Shown piece by piece: positions 42,467-58,103 of a stretch of 64,000 bases of DNA. The translations under genes were made by a program, and so were the position numbers. A model generated the notes under the pieces. It was not told the DNA's origin and did no database searches. It saw only the letters and a list, made by a program, of their open reading frames with translations. Source of the stretch: Candidatus Omnitrophota bacterium (GTDB lineage Bacteria; Omnitrophota; Gorgyraeia; Aquiviventales; Aquiviventaceae); NCBI GenBank assembly GCA_016198905.1, contig JACQHR010000013.1:70153-134152 (forward strand), given 5' to 3'. Position 1 is the stretch's first letter. Each line of letters opens with the position of its first letter.

Positions 42467-43864
42467 TCAGGTCACGAGTGATTCGATTTCCGGTAGACGC
42501 CGCGGCCGCACATGCGCCTGCCGCAATGCCGCGCGCAATTCGCCGGCCAGAAACAACGAACCGGTCACCACGATGACGTCCTGAGACGAGACGGCGTTGA
42601 GCAAATACGTGTAGGCATCAATGGGATCGCTCATCACGTGGACGTCATGGCAGAAGGGATACAGCCGCGTCGCAAGCTCCGTGGGGTCAAGCGCACGGGG
42701 GTGGCGGCTCTTCGTGCAGGTCACACTCACCGCTATCCGGCCGATGATCTTGCCCACGTCCTCGATGGATTTATCCTCAGACATGCCCATCAGCAGGTGG
42801 ATCGTGCGGCCCTGACAGAATTCCTCGAGCGTCTCGCGCAAGGCCTGTGCCGCATGCGGATTGTGCGCCCCGTCGATGAACACGAGGGGGACATCGCTCA
42901 CCACTTCCAGACGTCCCGGCCACTGCGCGCTGATGAGTCCTCGCTCCACCAACCCATAGGGCACGCCGGTGTCGGAGAGCGCTTCGAGGGCCGCGATCGC
43001 CAGCGCGGCGTTCGACGCCTGGTGCCGCCCGATCAGCGGCACGTGCAACGAGTCATAGCGTCCGCGTAGGCCGGTGATCGAGATCCGCGATCCCTCGAGC
43101 GATGACTCGTGAATCGTCACGCCAACATCGATCCCGCAGACGGTGAGTGGCACACCCTGCGCGTCGCACACCGTGCGCAGCACATCCAGCACCGGTTCTT
43201 GCTGCGGCGCGCTGAGGACCACCTGATTCGCTTTGATGATGCCGGACTTTTCATAGGCGATCTTCACCGGGTCATTGCCTAACACATCCGCATGATCCAC
43301 GTCGATCGGGCCGAGCACCGAAATTGCCTGGTCGACGATGTTCGTCGCATCCAATCGGCCGCCCAGGCCGACCTCCAACACCGCGATCTCCACGCCGATG
43401 CGGCTGAAGTGCAGCAGTGCAGCGGCGGTCATGACCTCGAAGTACGTCGGCGCGCCAAGCGACTCGTCGCGCATCGCCTCCGCGCACGAGGCCACGCGTT
43501 CGATGATCGCGGCCACGTCCGCCTCGCTGATCCAATCGTCTTGATGGGCCCGCTCTGCTTGCGGCCCGCGCGTCCACGCCCGGATGCGCTCCCGCAGATG
43601 CTCAACGTGCGGCGACGTGTAGAGGCCCGCGCGCAGCGAGCTTTCCCGCAGCATCGAGTAGAGCAGCGCGCAGATCGAGCCTTTCCCGTTCGTGCCGGTC
43701 ACGACGACCGAACGAAAGCGCCGCTGGGGATCGCCGAGTTTCTGGCAGAGCCGCCGCATGCGCGTGAGCTTTACCTCGCGCATCGCCTGCGGATCATGGC
43801 AGCGCTCGTAGTTGACGAGCGATTCGAGATACTGCACGGCGTCCTGATACGTCATGCCTGACAC
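42467..43864 (-). CDS. folC: bifunctional folylpolyglutamate synthase / dihydrofolate synthase
   Basis: 465 aa. VTGTNGKGS P-loop and Mur-ligase-type middle and C-terminal domains. Confidence 0.9.
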   Translation of the reverse strand: MSGMTYQDAVQYLESLVNYERCHDPQAMREVKLTRMRRLCQKLGDPQRRFRSVVVTGTNGKGSICALLYSMLRESSLRAGLYTSPHVEHLRERIRAWTRGPQAERAHQDDWISEADVAAIIERVASCAEAMRDESLGAPTYFEVMTAAALLHFSRIGVEIAVLEVGLGGRLDATNIVDQAISVLGPIDVDHADVLGNDPVKIAYEKSGIIKANQVVLSAPQQEPVLDVLRTVCDAQGVPLTVCGIDVGVTIHESSLEGSRISITGLRGRYDSLHVPLIGRHQASNAALAIAALEALSDTGVPYGLVERGLISAQWPGRLEVVSDVPLVFIDGAHNPHAAQALRETLEEFCQGRTIHLLMGMSEDKSIEDVGKIIGRIAVSVTCTKSRHPRALDPTELATRLYPFCHDVHVMSDPIDAYTYLLNAVSSQDVIVVTGSLFLAGELRAALRQAHVRPRRLPEIESLVT

Positions 43865-48311: not shown

Positions 48312-48878
48312 TCAGAACCGAATGAGCAGGAGCTTCTCTTTGATCAACCTGATGTGCGCCTTCATGGTGGCGATTTCCTGATCGACCCGGGCTGCGTCGC
48401 GCAAGAGCTCGTTGATCTGCGCATCGTTCTTCGCGCGGTCCCGATCGGTCCAGACGTTCTCGGCGGCTTTCGCGGCTTTGCGCAATTGCGCGATCTGGCG
48501 GCCGAGGGTGGCTCGCTGCAGCTGCTTGGCCCGCAATTCTTCGGCGGCGCGAGCGAGCGCGCTCGAGAGCGTTGTTTGTTCCGGCTCCATCCCCTTCTTG
48601 ATCTCAGCGGTCCGGATCTTGACGTTGGCTGCGGTGACCGCCAAATCCCTGCGCAGCTGGGCGATGCTCTGCTCCACCGTCGTCTTCTTGAGGGCGAGCT
48701 TGCGCTCTTCGGTTTCGATGCGACCGGCCAGATGCCGATACTTCTCCAGCACGGAAGAAAATTCCGGGTCGTCCTTGAGGACGTCTTTGGAGAGCTGTTC
48801 GCGATTGACCGGGCTGCAGCCGGCGAGGACAACGCACACGCCCAGCGCCATCATCACGCCGTCAGAGCTACGTCGCAT
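48312..48878 (-). CDS. coiled-coil lipoprotein, hypothetical
   Basis: VVLAGC lipobox, followed by a heptad-rich region. Confidence 0.5.
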   Translation of the reverse strand: MRRSSDGVMMALGVCVVLAGCSPVNREQLSKDVLKDDPEFSSVLEKYRHLAGRIETEERKLALKKTTVEQSIAQLRRDLAVTAANVKIRTAEIKKGMEPEQTTLSSALARAAEELRAKQLQRATLGRQIAQLRKAAKAAENVWTDRDRAKNDAQINELLRDAARVDQEIATMKAHIRLIKEKLLLIRF

Positions 48879-48909: not shown

Positions 48910-48944
48910 CACAAAAACTCCGCACCCACTTAGCACAGGTGCGG
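48910..48944 (-). terminator. intrinsic terminator after kamA
   Basis: Minus-strand read: CCGCACC-tgtgctaagtg-GGTGCGG followed by AGTTTTTGTG. Confidence 0.6.
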
Positions 48945-48969
48945 GGCGTGCCGCCCGTGCCAACCGGCG

Positions 48970-50145
48970 TTATCGAATGAGCGCGTACGACGGTTCGATC
49001 GAGGCCGTCCGCGCGCCATTGCCGTTGGCCGATTCCTCTCGATACGTAAACGTCTTGCCGGCGAAGTTGCGCAGCGTCCACACCCCATCCTTGACGCTGA
49101 CGACGTAGTTCGGCATGAGCGGAATCTTGCCGCCGCCGCCCGGCCCATCGACGACAAACGTCGGCACCGCATAGCCCGTCGTGTGCCCGCGCAGCTTCTC
49201 GATGATCTGAAGGCCGGCTGAGACCGGCGTGCGGAAGTGCGCCGTCCCCTTCACCGGATCGCACTGATAGATGTAGTAGGGCCGCACGCGGGTTTTCAGC
49301 AGCTCATGGAACAGTTTCTTCATGATCGCCGGCCGGTCGTTGAGGCCCTTCATCAGCACCGTCTGCGAACCGAGCGGCACCCCGCTGTCGGCGAGCATGC
49401 CGCACGCTTTCCGCACCGGCGGTGTCACCTCTTTCGGGTGATTGAAGTGCACGCTCATCCAGATCGGTTTGTGCTTGCGCAGCACCGCGCACAGCGGCTC
49501 CGTGATGCGATACGGCAGGGTCACCGGATTGCGCGTGCCGATGCGCACGAACTCCACATGCGGGATCGCTTTGAGTTTCGTCAGGACTTCATCGAGGCGT
49601 TCATCGGAGAGCGTGAGCGGATCACCGCCCGAGATCAGCACATCGCGAATCTTACGGTGCGCCCTGATGTAGTCGATCGCCGCGTCGATGTTGGCCGGGC
49701 GGCTGTAGCCGGCGGTCGTGCCGACCACCCGGCTGCGCGTGCAGAAGCGGCAGTACATCGAGCAGACTTCCACGACGAGCAGCAGCACGCGATCCGGGTA
49801 GCGATGCACCAATCCCGGCACCGGCATATGGCTGTCCTCGCTTAGCGGGTCGATCATGTCGTTCGGGCTCAGCTTGTACTCATCCTCGACGGGCACCGCC
49901 TGGCGACGAATCGGACACGTGGGATCGTCCGCATCCATGAGGGCGGCCCAATACGGTGGAATACCCATGATGAAGCGGCCCGACTTGCGCGTCACCGCAT
50001 TGCGTTCCGATGAGGTCAGACGAATGACCTGCTGTAAGTGCTCCACCGTCTGAATCCGGTTGGCCATCTGCCACCGGTACGTTTCCCACTGCTCCAAGGG
50101 AACGTCTTTCCACAGGGGAATTCGCTGATAGGCTTCCACGCTCAC
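48970..50145 (-). CDS. kamA: lysine 2,3-aminomutase (KamA family radical SAM)
   Basis: CSMYCRFCTRS radical-SAM motif, YIYQCD and VVDGPGGGGK. Start placed at GTG 50145, 7 nt after AAGGAGGG (ORF track 50259). Confidence 0.85.
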   Translation of the reverse strand: MSVEAYQRIPLWKDVPLEQWETYRWQMANRIQTVEHLQQVIRLTSSERNAVTRKSGRFIMGIPPYWAALMDADDPTCPIRRQAVPVEDEYKLSPNDMIDPLSEDSHMPVPGLVHRYPDRVLLLVVEVCSMYCRFCTRSRVVGTTAGYSRPANIDAAIDYIRAHRKIRDVLISGGDPLTLSDERLDEVLTKLKAIPHVEFVRIGTRNPVTLPYRITEPLCAVLRKHKPIWMSVHFNHPKEVTPPVRKACGMLADSGVPLGSQTVLMKGLNDRPAIMKKLFHELLKTRVRPYYIYQCDPVKGTAHFRTPVSAGLQIIEKLRGHTTGYAVPTFVVDGPGGGGKIPLMPNYVVSVKDGVWTLRNFAGKTFTYREESANGNGARTASIEPSYALIR

Positions 50146-50170
50146 CGTGCTCCCTCCTTTATCCGCCGTC

Positions 50171-51280
50171 TCATGGAGCGACCGGGCTTGCCACAAGCCG
50201 ATTCGCTGATGCGGGCTCCTGAGCGGGGACGCTCCCATCATCGCGCGTGGTCCCGGCACATGCCGGCCGCGCCGTCTGGGAGGTCTGGCTGTAGCGGGCC
50301 GTGGCCAATTCCACGATCCGCTGAATCAGCGCATGATGAGAAAGTCCTGCCGCCGTGGTCATCGCCGTAAAGTTGCTATCAAGCGGACTTAAACCCGGCA
50401 AGGGATTGACTTCCAACACGAATGGCGTGCCATCAGCACGGAGTCGAATGTCGGTCCGAGAAAAATCGGCGCAGCCCAGCGCGCGATGCGCGCGACGCGC
50501 CATCTCGTGCACGCGTGCGGCCATCTGCGCATCCAACCGCGCAGGACAATGAAATGCCGGAGCCAGGCCCAGCGACGCGTCGCCCTGAAATTCCTTCATG
50601 CGCCACGAGTAGAAGAACTCGCCCGACCCTTTGCACGGCGAGAAATCGATTTCCAGGATCGGCAGCGCGTCATCGCCAATCATGCCGACGGTGAGTTCCG
50701 TCCCGTCGACGAACTCTTCCACGAGCACTTCTTGATGGTACCGCTCGTAGATGCGCGCGACTTGCCGGCGCAGCGAGGCTTCATCCCCCACGACGCTCTC
50801 GCGCCAAATCCCCTTGCTGGAGCCTTCGCGGTTGGGTTTCACAATCAACGGAAACCCCAATCGCGTATTGAGTCGTGTCGTCGGCGTCGGAAACAACTGC
50901 CATGAGGGCGTCGGGATGCCTTCGGAGACGAGAATCTGCTTGGTCTTGGCTTTATCGAGGGCGAGGGCGAGGGTCACGCTGTTGGAACCGGTGTAGGGCA
51001 CGCCCAGCGATTCGAGGATCGCGGGCACTTGCGATTCGCGATGCTGTCCGTGGGTGCCTTCGGCGATATTGAAGACGAGATCGACGGTGTGAGTGAGGAA
51101 CCACTCCGACAGCTGCGCCGTGGCTTCGACGAGGCTGACGGTATGCCCGCAGGCGCGCAGGCTGCCGACGATCGTATCGATCGTCTTCTGGGTGTCGAAC
51201 TCCGAATCTCCATCAAGGCATCCCTCCCCCGAGGAGCGTTCGCGTTTGAGGTTGTAGGCTAGCGCGATGGAGTAGCTGAT
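50171..51280 (-). CDS. D-alanine--D-alanine ligase family ATP-grasp protein (paralog 2), non-canonical start
   Basis: The ORF track starts at GTG 51028. However, the same frame upstream encodes LAYNLKRE...VDLVFNIAEGTHGQHRESQ, which aligns to the N-terminus of paralog 1. No ATG, GTG or TTG is available there. A candidate ATC at 51280 follows GAGGG. Confidence 0.6.
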   Translation of the reverse strand: MSYSIALAYNLKRERSSGEGCLDGDSEFDTQKTIDTIVGSLRACGHTVSLVEATAQLSEWFLTHTVDLVFNIAEGTHGQHRESQVPAILESLGVPYTGSNSVTLALALDKAKTKQILVSEGIPTPSWQLFPTPTTRLNTRLGFPLIVKPNREGSSKGIWRESVVGDEASLRRQVARIYERYHQEVLVEEFVDGTELTVGMIGDDALPILEIDFSPCKGSGEFFYSWRMKEFQGDASLGLAPAFHCPARLDAQMAARVHEMARRAHRALGCADFSRTDIRLRADGTPFVLEVNPLPGLSPLDSNFTAMTTAAGLSHHALIQRIVELATARYSQTSQTARPACAGTTRDDGSVPAQEPASANRLVASPVAP

Positions 51281-52290
51281 AGAACCCTCGTTTCGTTGCG
51301 CGGGAGTAACCCATAGCGCATGAGAGCCATGTCGAGAATCCGATTGATCGTCTGGTAGTGGGTCGTCCCCCGCGTCTTCGCAATGAAGGTAAAGACGTCT
51401 TCGGTCGAGAGCGACGGCAGCGGATTGATCTCCAGCACATAGGGATTCCCATGTCGGTCCACGCGAAAATCTACGCGGCCAAAATCACGGCAGTCAACGG
51501 CTTGATAGGTGCGCAAGGCGAGGTCTTGCATGCGTTTGGCGAGCGTCTCAGGAATGGGCGCGGGGCAGATGTAGTCGGCCCCCGCGCGCAAATAGGCGAA
51601 CGTGAAAAACTTCCGGCCCAGATCCGTTTGCCCATCAAGGGCGATCTGGACCACGGGATACGCCTCCGGGTGCTCATTGCCAATAATGGCGACGGTGAAT
51701 TCTTTGCCCTCGATGAATTCTTCAATGAAGATCGACGAGCGTTTGTAGGTCTCGCCGAGCCATTGCACCTGGCGTCGCAGCTCCTCCGGCGTGTTGACGA
51801 GCGATTTTTCGCTCAAACCCTTGCTCGAGCCTTCGCAGCGCAGCTTCACGATGAGCGGATAGCGCAGATCGGTCTTCCACAATTTTTCCTGATCCGCCAC
51901 TTCAAAGTAGCGGGGCGTGGGAATGTCTTCTGCGATGAGGACTTTCTTCGTCAGCACCTTGTCCAGCGTCAATCCCAGCGTCAGCCCATCGGCTCCGACG
52001 AAGGGAATGCGCAGCATCTCAAGCAGAATGGGCACTTGCGATTCGCGGTTGCGGCCCTCGTAGCCTTCGGCGATATTGAAGACGATGTCGACCTCGAGCT
52101 TGCCTCGGTGCTCGAGCAACTGCCGCGCATTGCCGATGCGGATGACGTCGTGGCCATTGCCGCGAAACGCTTTCTCAATATGATTGATCGTGTCCTCGTG
52201 ATCGAGCTCCGCGTTGAGATCCGGCGGATCGCCCGGTCGCAAGACGACCTCGCTTTTCACGTTGTAGGTTAAGCCCACGCGAAACCCCAT
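51259..52290 (-). CDS. D-alanine--D-alanine ligase family ATP-grasp protein (paralog 1)
   Basis: Start placed at MGFRVGLTYNVK behind GGAGTGAGG. IVKLRCEGSSKG, EEFIEGKEFTVAIIG and GRVDFRVD...VLEINPLPS motifs. Confidence 0.8.
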   Translation of the reverse strand: MGFRVGLTYNVKSEVVLRPGDPPDLNAELDHEDTINHIEKAFRGNGHDVIRIGNARQLLEHRGKLEVDIVFNIAEGYEGRNRESQVPILLEMLRIPFVGADGLTLGLTLDKVLTKKVLIAEDIPTPRYFEVADQEKLWKTDLRYPLIVKLRCEGSSKGLSEKSLVNTPEELRRQVQWLGETYKRSSIFIEEFIEGKEFTVAIIGNEHPEAYPVVQIALDGQTDLGRKFFTFAYLRAGADYICPAPIPETLAKRMQDLALRTYQAVDCRDFGRVDFRVDRHGNPYVLEINPLPSLSTEDVFTFIAKTRGTTHYQTINRILDMALMRYGLLPRNETRVLSATPSR

Positions 52291-52320
52291 CCTCACTCCG
52301 TGCTCACCGACGGTAGACAC

Positions 52321-52349
52321 AAAGAAAAGGACCCCGCTCGTCGGAGTCC
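52321..52349 (-). terminator. terminator-like hairpin + U tract inside the operon leader (candidate attenuator)
   Basis: Minus-strand read: GGACTCCG-acga-GCGGGGTCC followed by TTTTCTTT, about 30 nt upstream of the start codon. There is no upstream same-strand gene to terminate. Confidence 0.5.
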
Positions 52350-52568
52350 CTGGTCACGATCGCTGAGTTGTTTCAACGGTGACGCGCCAGTCCTCAAATC
52401 ATCCGTCGCGATCCGCCACAGACCGCGCGGGCATCGAAAGGCCGAATCACCATCACGTGTGCGTTCATTGACACTATAGTTCGTACCATACCCCACCAAC
52501 CCTGTCAAGCAATTGTCATGCATCACGAAGTTGTGTTATAGTTGACGACCATCAACGGAGGCATCGCC

Positions 52569-55214: not shown

Positions 55215-57989
55215 TTACGAGCAGCCGGAGGTGGTGCCGCAGTTGGCGCACTTGTAGCAGCTGCCGCTACGGATCATGAGCGAGCCGCAGTCACTGCACA
55301 CCGGCGCATCGGCTTGCGAGACGAACGTATTCTTCTCTTGCTGCTCCATCGCATTGCCGTAGCTGTTCTCCGCCGGTATCTTGGCCGTGGCAGGAACCGC
55401 TGTCGCAACCGACTTGGCCCCAGGAATCTCAGTCACTTTGAACTGCTGGGCTTCTTCTGCCGGCAGGAATTTCAGCGCCATCCAGCGGAAGATGTAGTCG
55501 ATCACCGATTTGGCAAAGCGAATGTCCTTGTTGTTGGTGACCCCGGAAGGTTCAAACCGCACGTGGCTGAATTTGTTCACGAGAATCTTGAGCGGCACGC
55601 CGTATTGCAGCGAGAGCGAGACGGTCGTCGCGAAACAGTCCATGACGCCGGAGAGGGTCGAGCCTTCCTTCGACATCACGATGAAGATTTCGCCTGGCTG
55701 GCCGTCTTCGAAGAGCCCAACGGTCAGATACCCTTCATGGCCACCGATGGAAAACTTATGCGTGATCGCCTGGCGCTCATCCGGAAGCCGGCGGCGGTAG
55801 GGCGTGCCTACCGGGGCTTTTGCTTTCGCTTTATCACCCTTGCTCGTCGAAAGTGGCTGCACTTTCTTGGAGCCGTCACGGTAGATCGCCAGCGCCTTCA
55901 CACCGAGTCGCCACGCCTCGGTGTAGGCGTGCACGATGTCTTCGACCGTCGCCTCTTCCGGCAAATTCACCGTCTTGCTGATCGCCCCGCTGATGAACGG
56001 CTGGGCGGCTCCCATCATCCGCACGTGGCCCATGGAGTGGATCGAGCGCGTACCGTGCATCGGCCGAAACGCGCAGTCGAACACCGACAGATGCTCAGCC
56101 TTCAATCCCGGCGCCCCTTCGATGGTTTCCTTTTCATTCAAGTGCTTGAGAATCGCTTCGATCTCCTGCGGCTCGTAGCCGAGTTTCTTCAGCGCCTTCG
56201 GGACGGTCTGATTGACGATCTTCAGCATCCCCCCACCGACGAGGCGCTTGTACTTGATGAGCGCGATGTCCGGTTCGACCCCGGTCGTGTCGCAATCCAT
56301 CAGAAACGCGATCGTGCCGGTCGGTGCGAGCACCGTGACCTGCGAATTGCGCACGCCGAATTGCTCGCCAAGCTTGATGGACTCATCCCACGTTCGCGTT
56401 GCGGCTTGCAAGAGCGGCTGTGGCACGAGGCGATGGTTGATTTTATCGACCTGCGCGCGATGCTTGCGCAACACGCGGATCTGCGGCTCGCGATTGAGCG
56501 CAAAGCCCGCATATGGCCCAAGCTGCTGCGCAATCTGCCCGGAGACTTCATACGCATGCCCGCACATGAGTGCCGTAATCGCCCCGGCCCACGCGCGGCC
56601 CTCTTCCGAGTCGTAGGCGACACCCAGCGACATGAGCAGCGCGCCAAGATTCGCGTAGCCCAAGCCGAGCTCGCGGTAATCTCTCGCGTTGCGATCGATC
56701 TTCGGCGTCGGATAGGAAGAGTTGTCGACGATGATATCCTGCGCGATGATCATGATGCGCACCGCGTACTTGAACTGTTCGGTCAGGAAGTTGCCCTCAT
56801 CGTCGACGAACTTCATGAGGTTGATGCTGGCGAGGTTGCACGCGCTGTTATCGAGGTGCATGTACTCGCTGCACGGGTTGCTCGCGTTGATGCGGCCGGT
56901 GTTCGGGCAGGTGTGCCAATCGTTGATCGTCGTGTCAAACTGCATGCCGGGATCGCCGCAATGCCAGGTCGCTTCGGCGATCAATCGCAGCAGGTCGCGG
57001 GCTTTGGCGCGCTCAATCACCTCTCCGGTGGTCGCGGCCTTCAGATCCCACTCCTCATCGGTGAGCGCTCGCTTCATGAAATCGTCCGTCACGCGCACGG
57101 AGTTGTTCGCGTTCTGGAAGAACACCGAGGTGTACGCTTCCCCGTCGATCGTCGCGTCGTAGCCCAAGTCGATCAGCTTGTGCGCCTTCTCTTCTTCCTT
57201 CCACTTGCAGAGGATGAACTGCTTGATATCCGGGTGATCGGCGTTCATCACGACCATTTTCGCCGCGCGCCGCGTTTTGCCCCCGGACTTGATGACGCCC
57301 GCCGAGGCATCGGCCGCGCGCATGAAGGAGACCGGTCCTGATGCGGTGCCGCCCCCGGCGAGGCGCTCGCGCGAGGAGCGGATGTTCGACACGTTCAGGC
57401 CGGCCCCGGAACCGTACTTGAAGATCATCCCTTCGTTGCGGTACCACTCGAGGATGGACTCCATCGTGTCATCGACGGAAAGAATGAAACACGCGGAGCA
57501 CTGCGGGATTTTCTCGATCCCCACGTTAAACCACACCGGCGAATTGAACGCGGCGTATTGATTGACGAGGAGGTAGGTCAGCTCGGCATGATAGGTCTGG
57601 GCATCGTCATCGGTCGCAAAGTAGCCGTCTGCGATGCCCCAATTGGTAATCGTATCAGCCACCCGGCTAATGAGCTGCTTCACGCTGCGCTCGCGCGCCG
57701 GGGTCCCGAGGGCGCCGCGGAAATACTTGGAAACCACTACGTTGGTCGCCAGCTGGCTCCAGAAATTCGGCACCTCGACGTCTTTTTGTTCAAAGACCAC
57801 TTCCCCTTTCTCGTTGCCGATCGAGGCGCTGCGCAACTCCCAGGTCATTTCGTCATACGGATGCACGGTCGGACGGGTCCAGCGGCGGGCGATTTTGAGG
57901 CCCGTTGTCTGAGTTTTGGGACGCCCTTGGAGAGTGACCGCCGATGCCTCACCTGCAGGCCTTCCAACTGTCTTGACGCCCTCAGCCAT
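55215..57989 (-). CDS. nrdJ: adenosylcobalamin-dependent (class II) ribonucleotide reductase
   Basis: Start placed at MAEGVKTV behind GAGGAG. NPCSE active-site loop. C-terminal Cys-rich tail CSDCG...CYKCANCG. Confidence 0.9.
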   Translation of the reverse strand: MAEGVKTVGRPAGEASAVTLQGRPKTQTTGLKIARRWTRPTVHPYDEMTWELRSASIGNEKGEVVFEQKDVEVPNFWSQLATNVVVSKYFRGALGTPARERSVKQLISRVADTITNWGIADGYFATDDDAQTYHAELTYLLVNQYAAFNSPVWFNVGIEKIPQCSACFILSVDDTMESILEWYRNEGMIFKYGSGAGLNVSNIRSSRERLAGGGTASGPVSFMRAADASAGVIKSGGKTRRAAKMVVMNADHPDIKQFILCKWKEEEKAHKLIDLGYDATIDGEAYTSVFFQNANNSVRVTDDFMKRALTDEEWDLKAATTGEVIERAKARDLLRLIAEATWHCGDPGMQFDTTINDWHTCPNTGRINASNPCSEYMHLDNSACNLASINLMKFVDDEGNFLTEQFKYAVRIMIIAQDIIVDNSSYPTPKIDRNARDYRELGLGYANLGALLMSLGVAYDSEEGRAWAGAITALMCGHAYEVSGQIAQQLGPYAGFALNREPQIRVLRKHRAQVDKINHRLVPQPLLQAATRTWDESIKLGEQFGVRNSQVTVLAPTGTIAFLMDCDTTGVEPDIALIKYKRLVGGGMLKIVNQTVPKALKKLGYEPQEIEAILKHLNEKETIEGAPGLKAEHLSVFDCAFRPMHGTRSIHSMGHVRMMGAAQPFISGAISKTVNLPEEATVEDIVHAYTEAWRLGVKALAIYRDGSKKVQPLSTSKGDKAKAKAPVGTPYRRRLPDERQAITHKFSIGGHEGYLTVGLFEDGQPGEIFIVMSKEGSTLSGVMDCFATTVSLSLQYGVPLKILVNKFSHVRFEPSGVTNNKDIRFAKSVIDYIFRWMALKFLPAEEAQQFKVTEIPGAKSVATAVPATAKIPAENSYGNAMEQQEKNTFVSQADAPVCSDCGSLMIRSGSCYKCANCGTTSGCS

Positions 57990-58103
57990 ACGATGTTCTC
58001 CTCGACCCCTCGACTCGCTGCGCTCGCTCGGGACACCGCGAAGCACAAGCTGTTGATCTATTTCCACAAGGAATCCCCAAGCCCTTGTGGATTTGCATTG
58101 ACG

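Follow-up and report, generated by a model that had tools for sequence, protein, structure and literature searches.

A conserved Omnitrophota operon of two Ddl-fold ATP-grasp ligases and a lysine 2,3-aminomutase-type enzyme may produce a β-lysine-derived metabolite

Known systems for the formation and ligation of β-lysine

Lysine 2,3-aminomutases (LAM), including KamA of Clostridium subterminale and AblA of methanogens, are accompanied by the AblB acetyltransferase or by lysine-fermentation genes. The AblA/AblB pathway of the osmolyte N-ε-acetyl-β-lysine combines a KamA-type source of β-lysine with amide masking of an amino group, and in the EpmA/EpmB system a KamA homolog likewise feeds an ATP-dependent amide ligation, the β-lysylation of EF-P, which is to our knowledge the only widespread bacterial housekeeping use of a KamA homolog. 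β-Lysine is also a known building block of NRPS, as in systems of the streptothricin/viomycin type. Small peptides are made without ribosome or NRPS by carnosine synthase (CARNS1/ATPGD1), which activates the β-amino acid β-alanine, and by bacterial L-amino-acid ligases (BL00235, PDB 3VOT); we know of none of these enzymes that is coupled with an aminomutase. Carnosine synthase has been described as an ATP-grasp enzyme.

We analyzed a 64,000-nt stretch (the window) of contig JACQHR010000013.1 from a genome of the phylum Omnitrophota (Candidatus Omnitrophota bacterium), in which a KamA-type enzyme is encoded together with two ATP-grasp ligases rather than with the partners known for clostridial and methanogen LAM. 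Judging from gene content and conserved residues, the odds slightly favor an operon that makes an undescribed β-lysine-derived metabolite, in which KamA would form β-lysine and ATP-dependent ligation would convert it into a small peptide or amide. If this is true, Omnitrophota, an uncultivated phylum, make a small β-lysine-containing peptide absent from described pathways. By analogy, carnosine synthase and the L-amino-acid ligases are probably closest to the likely mode of working of the system, although their substrates differ and 3VOT is only distantly related to the window ligases (E=9e-9, vs 1e-42 for Ddl).

Operon organization and conservation

The operon is encoded on the minus strand in the order lig1 (51259..52290, 343 aa, ATG at 52290), lig2 (50171..51280, approximately 369 aa as delimited by reading frame and homology), and kamA (48970..50145, 391 aa, GTG at 50145). 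The terminator scan placed an intrinsic terminator after kamA (48910..48944, minus strand; ten-pair stem CCGCACCTGTGCTAAGTGGGTGCGG, then AGTTTTTGTG), formed by the hairpin CCGCACC...GGTGCGG followed by AGTTTTTG (48944-48920). Every element of the original prediction for 48910-52290, namely two Ddl-family ATP-grasp ligases, KamA, and an intrinsic terminator, is present, as is the 25-nt gap between lig2 and kamA (50146-50170), which carries AAAGGAGGGAG. To the description of the operon as self-contained, two features have to be added: a non-canonical lig2 start and, for this lineage, a conserved structured 5' leader.

The proposed check of neighborhood conservation showed that the adjacency of kamA to both ligases is kept phylum-wide. 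All Omnitrophota species-representative loci with enough downstream sequence (69/69; 11 further loci ending at a contig edge were left out of the count) have the order lig1-lig2-kamA, and the arrangement is therefore no chance juxtaposition. Identities across these loci range between 55 and 82% for lig1, 40 and 74% for lig2, and 56 and 91% for kamA, with differing neighbors; an NCBI protein of a Candidatus Omnitrophica MAG matches the window KamA at 100% identity. Groundwater or lake-type sample names appear in the record titles of many metagenomes with matches, and a salt-stress solute would be unexpected in such places. The genes purH and folC recur downstream across the phylum, so that the region is broadly syntenic and conservation of gene order could partly reflect inertia, though the flanks change. 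The triad is best read as a phylum-wide, vertically inherited Omnitrophota operon.

Such conservation would suit a structural component, and the ligases could introduce β-lysine into a peptidoglycan precursor or attach it there, either as a side chain or cross-bridge or by supplying a dipeptide for a Mur ligase. The ATP-grasp D-aspartate ligase of enterococci provides a model for a side-chain or cross-bridge ligase, lig1 and lig2 descend from Ddl, glycosyltransferase and O-antigen-ligase-like genes (as read from sequence) lie just upstream in some subclades, and complete peptidoglycan synthesis has been reported for Omnitrophota (preprint). A role in the cell envelope is nonetheless unlikely: the ligases are encoded with an aminomutase, the triad is linked to mur, fts, or pbp genes in none of the approximately 90 loci, envelope-type neighbors are limited to a subclade, and the sole nearby Mur-ligase-type gene of the window (42467-43864) matches FolC-type genes of relatives (Mur_ligase + FOL3_C). 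Further, we know of no peptidoglycan containing β-lysine.

The KamA enzyme and its missing partners

The kamA product contains the Pfam domains Radical_SAM and LAM_C and the motifs CSMYCRFCTRS, YIYQCD, and VVDGPGGGGK. It is collinear with Clostridium LAM (PDB 2A5H) from end to end (365 residues, E=2.6e-133) and shares its cofactor and substrate residues, including Cys125, Cys129, and Cys132 of the CxxxCxxC motif, Arg134, Asp293, Asp330, and the PLP-binding Lys337. The two acidic residues previously proposed to bind lysine map to LAM positions 293 and 330. KamA passes the KamA family model TIGR00238 (360.9 bits vs a cutoff of 199.2) and stays 22 bits below the cutoff of TIGR03820, the model for lysine 2,3-aminomutase (503.2 vs 525.4), since the match covers model positions 4-362 of 417 and leaves positions 363-417 unmatched. 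Scores for glutamate 2,3-aminomutase (447/650), arginine 2,3-aminomutase (392/600), and EpmB (245/369; bits/cutoff) are lower still. The top score of the lysine model and the retention of both aspartates agree with the predicted preference for lysine over glutamate, and assignment to EpmB or to the glutamate aminomutases, one of the objections foreseen, is not indicated by these scores. Through the 2,3-aminomutase mechanism of radical-SAM/PLP enzymes, KamA very probably turns free L-lysine into β-lysine (3,6-diaminohexanoate).

The clostridial enzyme is longer (416 vs 391 aa), and the window KamA is without its C-terminal tail, so that its oligomeric assembly (quaternary structure) and the access to its active site may be different. 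Arg replaces LAM Cys268 and the last approximately 20 residues are cysteine-free, which makes the intersubunit zinc site of clostridial LAM probably absent. The possible change in active-site access and the gene order, with kamA last, would fit a reversed pathway, in which formation of a lysine-containing peptide by the ligases comes first and KamA then isomerizes the lysyl residue of this peptide. This order of events is most unlikely, given that Arg134, which we take to bind the free α-carboxylate, is conserved along with both ε-amine-binding aspartates, that PLP chemistry requires a free α-amine, and that KamA is 67% identical to a homolog inside an NRPS/MbtH cluster of a Vicinamibacterales MAG, which would feed free β-lysine to NRPS.

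As anticipated, none of the window genes scanned was identified as a known partner of β-lysine (GNAT, EpmA, EF-P (efp), or NRPS), and the literature searches gave no account of such a gene combination, consistent with the claim that it matches no described pathway. In place of the AblB-type acetyltransferase, ATP-dependent ligases would attach an acyl or amine partner resembling an amino acid instead of acetate; and in place of the condensation, adenylation, and carrier-protein genes of NRPS systems, which are lacking here, acyl phosphates would be formed on free-standing ATP-grasp enzymes. Attachment of β-lysine to a protein or RNA, e.g., to Lys34 of EF-P, with an ATP-grasp ligase in the role of the aaRS-like EpmA, is very unlikely. 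EF-P β-lysylation is a widespread housekeeping precedent for a KamA homolog, a core cellular function would suit phylum-wide conservation, and in many of the low-GC loci of Omnitrophota an EF-G-like and a YchF-like gene (read from sequence) come after kamA. However, KamA lies far below the EpmB model and nearer to AblA/KamA, neither an EpmA-type aaRS paralogue was found nearby nor efp in the window or any fetched locus, Ddl-type ATP-grasp enzymes are small-molecule ligases, and a single acylation needs no second ligase.

The Ddl-fold ligases

Both ligases contain the Pfam domain Dala_Dala_lig_C (E=1.6e-33 for lig1 and 9.7e-34 for lig2) and are 37% identical to each other, as expected from the original prediction of paralogous Ddl-like genes. 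Ddl (DdlA/DdlB, VanA family) is the closest family by HMM, and the three-domain ATP-grasp fold and the ATP/Mg and transition-state residues are common to both, yet identity is just 21-32% (28-32% with E. coli DdlB). An AlphaFold model of lig1 (pLDDT 84.8) has only Ddl structures as its best PDB matches (TM 0.7-0.8, 21-28% identity), by which modeling the Ddl fold of the ligases is confirmed. The ATP-grasp catalytic set is present in both (K97, K144, E180, E187, R255, D257, E270, and N272 in DdlB numbering), and the lig1 family is further marked by the motifs FNIAEGxxGRNRESQVP and NPLPSLSxxD. The substrate positions differ from Ddl: His63 is replaced by Glu, Glu15 by Asp, Ser281, which we take to bind the D-Ala2 carboxylate, by Asp or Glu, and GEDG by R-N-R-E-S, and conserved acidic residues are added close to the N-terminus. 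The DdlB Lys215 equivalent is present in lig2, whereas lig1 is without Lys215 and Tyr216 of the omega-loop. As far as residues can tell, the extra acidic side chains in place of the D-Ala contacts suit a diamino substrate of cationic character rather than D-alanine.

It is quite unlikely that one or both ligases simply represent the Omnitrophota D-Ala-D-Ala ligase, with the kamA link being historical synteny. Ddl is closest in both sequence and fold, Lys215 is kept by lig2, homologs are named D-alanine-D-alanine ligase by JGI and in some NCBI records, and K01921 (Ddl) has been reported in 176/176 complete Omnitrophota genomes (preprint), a count that might rest on lig1 and lig2 themselves. Against this, both proteins score below every curated Ddl threshold (170.5 bits for lig1 and 192.7 for lig2 with the best NCBIfam model, cutoff 243) and D-Ala-recognition positions are changed, so that by score they do not belong with genuine cell-wall Ddl, a grouping named beforehand as adverse. 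In addition, one dedicated leader RNA serves the three genes jointly, and synteny alone hardly explains the pairs and KamA-like fusions found elsewhere.

Related arrangements in other lineages

Single ligases of the lig1 type are paired with KamA in other lineages (L006 and L093); where the ligase is single, it is of the lig1 paralogue type (47-51% identity to lig1, 35-39% to lig2). In an Elusimicrobiota contig, ligase and KamA genes lie 4 kb apart. A family of ligase-KamA-like fusion proteins comprises at least 10 clusters (47-100% identity), in which the KamA-like domain has Gln in place of Asp293 and a GGGG loop shorter by two residues. Judged by these residues, the fusion lineage probably uses another amino acid, and the fusions therefore support the combination of ligase and aminomutase, not the use of β-lysine by the ligase. 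Tandem-fused ligases, with no KamA nearby, adjoin genes of Peptidase_S58, which we take to be the DmpA/BapA family that includes β-aminopeptidases.

These tandem ligases and S58 peptidases resemble a synthetase/hydrolase pair, and two tandem ATP-grasp active sites, fused in other lineages, recall polymerizing ATP-grasp systems. A ligase pair acting processively, like cyanophycin synthetase or RimK, to make a polymer or storage product, a polycationic oligo- or poly-β-lysine for which an acidic substrate pocket would be suitable, is still improbable: among the solved structures listed in the profile search only Ddl matched strongly, with neither cyanophycin synthetase nor RimK significant, the ligases have no primer-binding or extra domains, and the S58 peptidase was not found near the Omnitrophota operon.

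The original prediction that β-lysine is ligated is supported for the operon; the use of β-lysine by the ligases and their partner substrate are inferred from gene context and residue changes. Based on the conserved operon structure, the gene fusions, and the active-site changes, each ligase would activate a carboxylate by phosphorylation, giving an acyl phosphate that is then joined to an amine, with lig1 and lig2 probably acting as a pair that makes one or two amide bonds. In this scheme lig1 would be the core enzyme for the β-amino acid and lig2 would add a further residue, giving a small soluble β-lysyl di- or tripeptide or short oligomer, which may act as a polycation or compatible solute in the cytoplasm or else as a building block of the envelope.

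Leader RNA and translation start of lig2

A structured 5' leader RNA of approximately 180 nt (52305..52485, minus strand), which the covariance model scores at 157 bits, contains three nested helices, a conserved linker, and a terminator hairpin. All 48 instances (40 distinct sequences) immediately precede lig1 and share its orientation. In the 38 instances from metagenomes, paired cells make up 91%, compared with 38-47% when partners are slid, and both sides change in 18 of 35 pairs, including 10/10 in helix 2. No Rfam family matches, and the leader is a previously uncatalogued structured RNA in this lineage. Upstream, a -35-like hexamer TTGACA (52503..52508, minus strand) is invariant in 8 aligned relatives; no -10 hexamer could be assigned with confidence at canonical spacing. 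The hairpin and T-run found by the terminator scan (52327..52351, minus strand), 36 nt before the lig1 ATG, have a stem near-invariant across leader instances and are a candidate attenuator or expression platform. In the high-GC clade of the window, the leader may gate expression through this terminator, as a riboswitch-like element or a translation-coupled attenuator. A possible 24-codon uORF, MNAHVMVIRPFDARAVCGGSRRMI (52394..52468, minus strand), is present in 38/40 distinct leaders, with the ATG 16 codons upstream of a conserved Cys codon in 24/39 and the stop codon 8 codons past this Cys in 35/39. Its translation is unproven, since another frame is equally stop-free (37/39) and the I/V and S/P changes track RNA base pairing.

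The lig2 gene has no ATG, GTG, or TTG near its conserved N-terminus, where ISYSIALAYNLK aligns with MGFRVGLTYNVK of lig1; initiation at 51028, where a canonical start first occurs, would delete the entire N-terminal domain. As read from the sequence, lig2 probably starts at a conserved ATC (AUC; 51280-51278), located 4 nt after a GAGGG Shine-Dalgarno, and would be translated from this non-canonical codon overlapping the end of lig1 (stop codon TAG, 51259-51261). The lig1 stop has an identical offset in 26 distinct lig1-lig2 junctions of the clade, most of which lack any canonical start ahead of the conserved lig2 motif. Where the upstream frame closes, 12-14 open codons are left, with no start at the expected position, and the junction comparison shows a purine-rich GAGG, AGG, or GGG block preceding the conserved ATC.

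Organization and Conservation of the lig1-lig2-kamA Operon

The operon lies on the minus strand and comprises two paralogous Ddl-like ATP-grasp ligase genes, lig1 and lig2, whose products share 37% identity, followed by the KamA-family radical SAM gene kamA. The lig1 gene (51259-52290) encodes a protein of 343 aa and starts with an ATG at position 52290, just preceded by GGAGTGAGG. The frame of lig2 ends at 50171, and after a 25-nt spacer that includes AAAGGAGGGAG, kamA (391 aa) extends from a GTG at 50145 to 48970. The terminator scan placed a hairpin with a T-run after kamA, at 48944-48920 on the same strand. Both ligases match the Pfam domain Dala_Dala_lig_C (E about 1e-33 each), and KamA matches Radical_SAM and LAM_C; the description of a ligase pair, kamA and a terminator in the original prediction was therefore correct, with one amendment that concerns the start of lig2.

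A search with a 12-sequence ligase alignment, restricted to one genome per GTDB species, yielded at least 574 relatives, of which the best 80 loci were examined. All of these 80 loci belong to Omnitrophota, some of them being labelled "uncultured Planctomycetales"; the distribution beyond this phylum was judged from a few individual contigs. The order and orientation lig1-lig2-kamA are the same in each of the sufficiently long loci (69/69), the other 11 loci ending at a contig edge, so that the predicted adjacency of kamA to two ligases holds in every informative Omnitrophota locus. Identity across loci ranges from 55 to 82% for lig1, from 40 to 74% for lig2, and from 56 to 91% for kamA. According to published accounts, the metabolism of Omnitrophota is strongly reduced and host-dependent; since the operon is nevertheless found in every informative locus, its product is likely to be of biological importance to these ultra-small cells.

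The flanks of the triad vary by subclade. Upstream, they consist of RNR-dcd-ogg-gpmA, of M20 peptidase, PAC2-like and HAD hydrolase genes, or of glycosyltransferase and O-antigen-ligase genes; downstream, a lipoprotein gene and pabBC, or EF-G-like and YchF-like genes, are found. The recurrence of pabB, pabC, purH, and folC downstream was considered as a possible link to folate and rejected as regional synteny, since the intervening genes vary and kamA is followed by a terminator. The predicted lipoprotein located past this terminator (48312-48878, minus strand) is 188 aa long, coiled-coil-like and without a Pfam or NCBIfam match; its conservation at this site, with 40-57% identity, is limited to the high-GC clade, i.e., the Omnitrophota lineage of the window. 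In several related contigs, relatives of the class II ribonucleotide reductase encoded at 55215-58067 are split into two blocks about 1.1 kb apart (L128:2201-6127, L139:880-4737, L143:5539-9345), with the break at residue ~193 or ~410, as would be expected if an intein or intron, missing from the window copy, had been inserted.

Translation Start of lig2

Neither ATG, GTG nor TTG was found near the N-terminus of lig2 in the window. The conserved N-terminal strand of the protein, ISYSIALAYNLK (the lig1 counterpart being MGFRVGLTYNVK), opens at an ATC codon at 51280-51278, which is the candidate start; GAGGG is located 4 nt ahead of it, and lig2 overlaps the lig1 stop codon. In low-GC clades the lig2 start, ATG or GTG, precedes the conserved YNLK motif by six to eight codons. 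A comparison of 26 distinct junctions from the high-GC clade (loci L001-L016 and L095-L156) demonstrated that the lig1 stop is always located at the same offset, overlapping lig2 codons -2/-1, that a canonical lig2 start is absent from most junctions, and that 12-14 open codons are left in those where the lig2 frame closes upstream. The ATC codon (once ATA) is conserved in this set, as is a purine-rich block (GAGG, AGG, or GGG) a few nucleotides upstream. Translation of lig2 would most likely initiate at AUC or else re-initiate, coupled to the termination of lig1. A programmed -1 frameshift joining lig1 to lig2 was also entertained, because fused tandem ligases exist; it is considered less likely, since the junctions share no conserved slippery heptamer and instead retain a Shine-Dalgarno sequence with AUC.

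A Conserved Leader RNA Upstream of lig1

Conservation in the high-GC clade extends to the 250-nt spacer that separates gpmA from lig1. This spacer contains an invariant TTGACA, followed by about 180 nt folding into three nested helices, and then the linker CCGTTGA.ACAACT, also conserved, and a terminator hairpin (52351-52327) that ends 36 nt ahead of the lig1 ATG. This leader (52305-52485, minus strand) was also identified in other genome loci (e.g., L001:9807-9989 and L009:5815-5995) and in 38 metagenome loci (L095-L161). A covariance model gave 10 instances in genome loci and, applied after a pattern scan of metagenomes, 38 more; the 48 instances represent 40 distinct sequences, and all 48 are located immediately 5' of lig1, whether gpmA or ogg precedes. 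Pairing holds for 91% of cells in the metagenome instances, versus 38-47% in slid controls, and two-sided changes were observed in 18 of 35 pairs, among them the ten that make up helix 2. The leader is absent from the low-GC Omnitrophota clades.

The Rfam scan assigned no family to the leader, the best match (E=0.28) covering the terminator hairpin alone, and thereby ruled out a known riboswitch. An open reading frame of 24 codons (52468-52394, minus strand; consensus M..HVM..RSS.ARA[IV]CGG[SP]RRVI) is kept in 38 of the 40 distinct leaders, and it is regarded as putative only, because a second frame is equally stop-free and its covarying residues follow the RNA pairing. Two readings of the 24-codon frame, a RiPP precursor and a lysine-codon attenuator, were rejected on these grounds (the I/V and S/P covariation in particular tracks the pairing) and also because the peptide is variable, contains at most one Lys, and low-GC clades have the operon without the leader. 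From its conservation and covariation, the leader is a candidate for a new cis-regulatory element dedicated to the operon, either riboswitch-like or a translation-coupled attenuator; for a riboswitch, the ligand would help to identify the pathway.

Substrate Type of KamA

KamA aligns without gaps to residues 4-368 of the Clostridium subterminale lysine 2,3-aminomutase (LAM) structure 2A5H (E=2.6e-133). In this pairwise alignment, Cys125, Cys129, and Cys132 correspond to the CSMYCRFC motif and Lys337 to GGGGK, and both the CxxxCxxC motif and the position of the PLP-binding lysine are invariant in a 12-sequence alignment. Arg134, Asp293, and Asp330 of the clostridial enzyme are all identical in KamA; from the LAM structure and the comparison with glutamate 2,3-aminomutase, we take Arg134 to contact the alpha-carboxylate, the two aspartates the epsilon-ammonium group, and Lys337 the PLP. 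The replacement of both aspartates, as expected of a glutamate 2,3-aminomutase, is not observed in KamA.

Among the curated models, the KamA-family model TIGR00238 was passed (360.9 bits versus a cutoff of 199.2), and the best score was obtained with the lysine 2,3-aminomutase equivalog TIGR03820 (503.2 bits), which falls short of the cutoff of 525.4 because model positions 363-417 are unmatched. The scores for glutamate 2,3-aminomutase (TIGR04368, 447.5 versus 650), arginine 2,3-aminomutase (392 versus 600), and EpmB (TIGR03821, 245.5 versus 369.3) are all below the cutoffs. The assignment of KamA to the lysine rather than the glutamate type, proposed originally from its two acidic residues, is supported by these residues and by the model scores, and KamA is well under the cutoffs of both the EpmB and the glutamate aminomutase models, the two clades that had been named as alternative placements. 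Taken at the level of sequence, KamA likely forms beta-lysine, a proposal that we make with good confidence.

Position 268 of KamA is Arg instead of Cys, and the last 20 residues of its short C-terminal tail contain no Cys; in clostridial LAM, Cys268 and cysteines of the C-terminal tail form an intersubunit zinc site. This site is probably missing from the Omnitrophota KamA, and its loss may alter the oligomeric state of the enzyme. An NCBI protein of a Candidatus Omnitrophica MAG matches the window KamA at 100% identity, and the nearest lig1 homologs (73-84% identity) are likewise labelled Candidatus Omnitrophica. A KamA homolog of 67% identity sits within an NRPS/MbtH cluster, beta-lysine being a known NRPS building block.

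Ligases Derived from Ddl

Both ligases score below the cutoffs of all NCBIfam Ddl and Van models, including the best Ddl model, NF002378 (170.5 bits for lig1 and 192.7 for lig2 versus 243), and TIGR01205 (151.8 and 163.4 bits versus 245.65), and they share 28-32% identity with E. coli DdlB. The relationship to Ddl is evident from a family profile search, which recovered solved Ddl structures at about 1e-42 and an L-amino-acid ligase at 9e-9 only, and from the AlphaFold model of lig1 (pLDDT 84.8), for which all top Foldseek matches are Ddl, with Ddl structures superposing at a TM of 0.7-0.8 and 21-28% identity.

The DdlB residues for ATP/Mg and the transition state (K97, K144, E180, E187, R255, D257, E270, and N272) are invariant across a 15-sequence alignment that includes DdlB. 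Of the set Glu15, His63, Ser150, Lys215, Tyr216, and Ser281, to which we ascribe D-Ala-binding roles in E. coli DdlB, only Ser150 is kept. Both ligases have Glu15 replaced by Asp, His63 by Glu, Ser281 by Asp or Glu, and GEDG by (R)NRES; the omega-loop residues Lys215 and Tyr216 are missing from lig1, and lig2 retains Lys only. Conserved acidic residues are added in the N-terminal domain. These extra acids, together with the acid at the position binding the D-Ala2 carboxylate, would fit a cationic substrate, e.g., a diamino acid. In neither the window nor some 90 related loci does a mur, fts, or pbp gene adjoin the triad. The possibility raised at the outset that the ligases might group with genuine cell-wall Ddl is countered by the sub-cutoff scores on every Ddl model and the replaced D-Ala positions; as judged from sequence, lig1 and lig2 derive from Ddl yet are not Ddl.

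Outside the Omnitrophota set, a single lig1-type ligase gene is located directly ahead of kamA in L006 and L093, and an Elusimicrobiota contig contains a ligase and a KamA gene 4 kb apart. Proteins of about 700 aa (P0318, P0403-P0409, P0411, and P0412) fuse the ligase to a KamA-like domain with Gln at position 293 (Asp in the window KamA) and a deletion in the GGGG loop. The fusion gene occurs in a conserved three-gene unit (L162:6959-11157, L087:5022-9258) with a RaSEA-like radical SAM gene (TIGR01210, 200/212 bits) and a GntC/VioD-like PLP enzyme gene, which looks like a different pathway, built on an amino acid that is either of the beta type or derived from arginine. Given the Gln at 293, the loop deletion, and the different neighbors, the fusion lineage probably handles another amino acid. 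What the fusions demonstrate is a partnership of the ligase family with 2,3-aminomutases, and not an invariable use of beta-lysine.

Roughly 800 representative clusters match the ligase family at E<1e-30; among the best 150, about 44 are tandem fusions of two such ligase domains. In both cases that could be placed (L090:3181-6368, L091:8001-11432), the tandem protein, about 680-720 aa long, is followed by a Peptidase_S58 gene, and no KamA is found nearby. The S58 peptidases are those of the DmpA/BapA type, some of which are beta-aminopeptidases, and the tandem ligase and S58 enzyme could possibly form a synthesis/hydrolysis pair for D- or beta-aminoacyl peptides. The halves of the tandem fusions were compared with lig1 and lig2 as potential orthologs, and the correspondence was not clear.

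The main rival explanation, namely that lig1 or lig2 is the real Ddl of the organism, could draw on a survey that counted D-Ala-D-Ala ligase (K01921) in 176/176 complete Omnitrophota genomes (bioRxiv 10.64898/2026.06.07.730766). This count may itself include, or consist of, paralogs of the lig1/lig2 type, since their homologs are often auto-annotated as Ddl; the label "D-alanine-D-alanine ligase" is widespread among these genes, and surveys of Omnitrophota Ddl may count them. Arguments against a genuine Ddl, which we consider very improbable, come from the altered residues and the scores below threshold, from the fusions to aminomutase domains, and from the leader shared by the operon. No further Ddl homolog was detected in the window, and neither a canonical ddl nor efp in the window or the related loci, a result that says nothing for the whole genome.

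Proposed Beta-Lysine Ligation Pathway

In the proposed pathway, KamA would convert free lysine to beta-lysine, and the ligases, probably acting as a pair because other lineages carry two ligase domains in one fused protein, would form acyl phosphates and amide bonds to yield a small beta-lysyl peptide or a short oligomer. Lig1 would be the aminomutase-linked core, and lig2 would add a further unit. On balance we lean toward this overall reading, in which beta-lysine made by KamA is ligated into a small peptide or oligomer. The original prediction of such an ATP-dependent ligation stands with respect to Ddl grouping, adjacency, and the KamA clade.

The known fates of beta-lysine are few: an acetylated osmolyte, EF-P modification, NRPS antibiotics, and fermentation. 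No GNAT, EpmA-like, EF-P, NRPS, or lysine-fermentation genes were detected by Pfam, tblastn, and neighborhood scans of the window genes, in line with the earlier claim that known beta-lysine partners are missing. An AblB-type GNAT acetyltransferase domain was found neither among the window genes scanned nor in the L001 neighborhood, and tblastn with the E. coli query detected no EF-P in the window or in 163 related loci. The operon differs from the AblA/AblB osmolyte system, where the AblB acetyltransferase adjoins KamA, and from EpmB-dependent beta-lysylation of EF-P, both in the EpmB score of KamA and in its lack of epmA/efp linkage. The nearest mechanistic analog of the proposed ligases is carnosine synthase, an ATP-grasp enzyme activating beta-alanine. 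Full-text literature searches yielded no description of KamA combined with ATP-grasp or Ddl-like ligases, and it was likewise noted originally that no described pathway matches.

The operon is best filed as a putative, undescribed, phylum-wide beta-lysine ligation pathway composed of known kinds of enzymes, with its own candidate regulatory RNA. An ATP-grasp route, if true, would add a new fate for beta-lysine, and it would extend the Ddl branch of ATP-grasp enzymes, a classic target of antibiotics, to a new class of substrates. A wider joint reading is tentative and rather unlikely to hold as a whole: Omnitrophota would depend on a beta-lysine peptide or oligomer made without ribosome or NRPS by a re-tooled Ddl-derived pair; in one clade, a new riboswitch class would sense lysine, beta-lysine, or the product; and the "GRNRES" Ddl-like ligases would be an unrecognized family of beta-amino-acid ligases, partnered by 2,3-aminomutases for synthesis and by S58 beta-aminopeptidases for turnover.

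In one subclade, a small membrane protein with mechanosensitive-channel-type TM helices (PF05552) is encoded directly upstream of lig1 (e.g., L005:5030-5704; also in L016, L019, L024, L045, L059, L060, L069, L071, and L077), and an MFS transporter gene follows kamA in L034 and L062. Both are faint hints of a soluble solute as the product.
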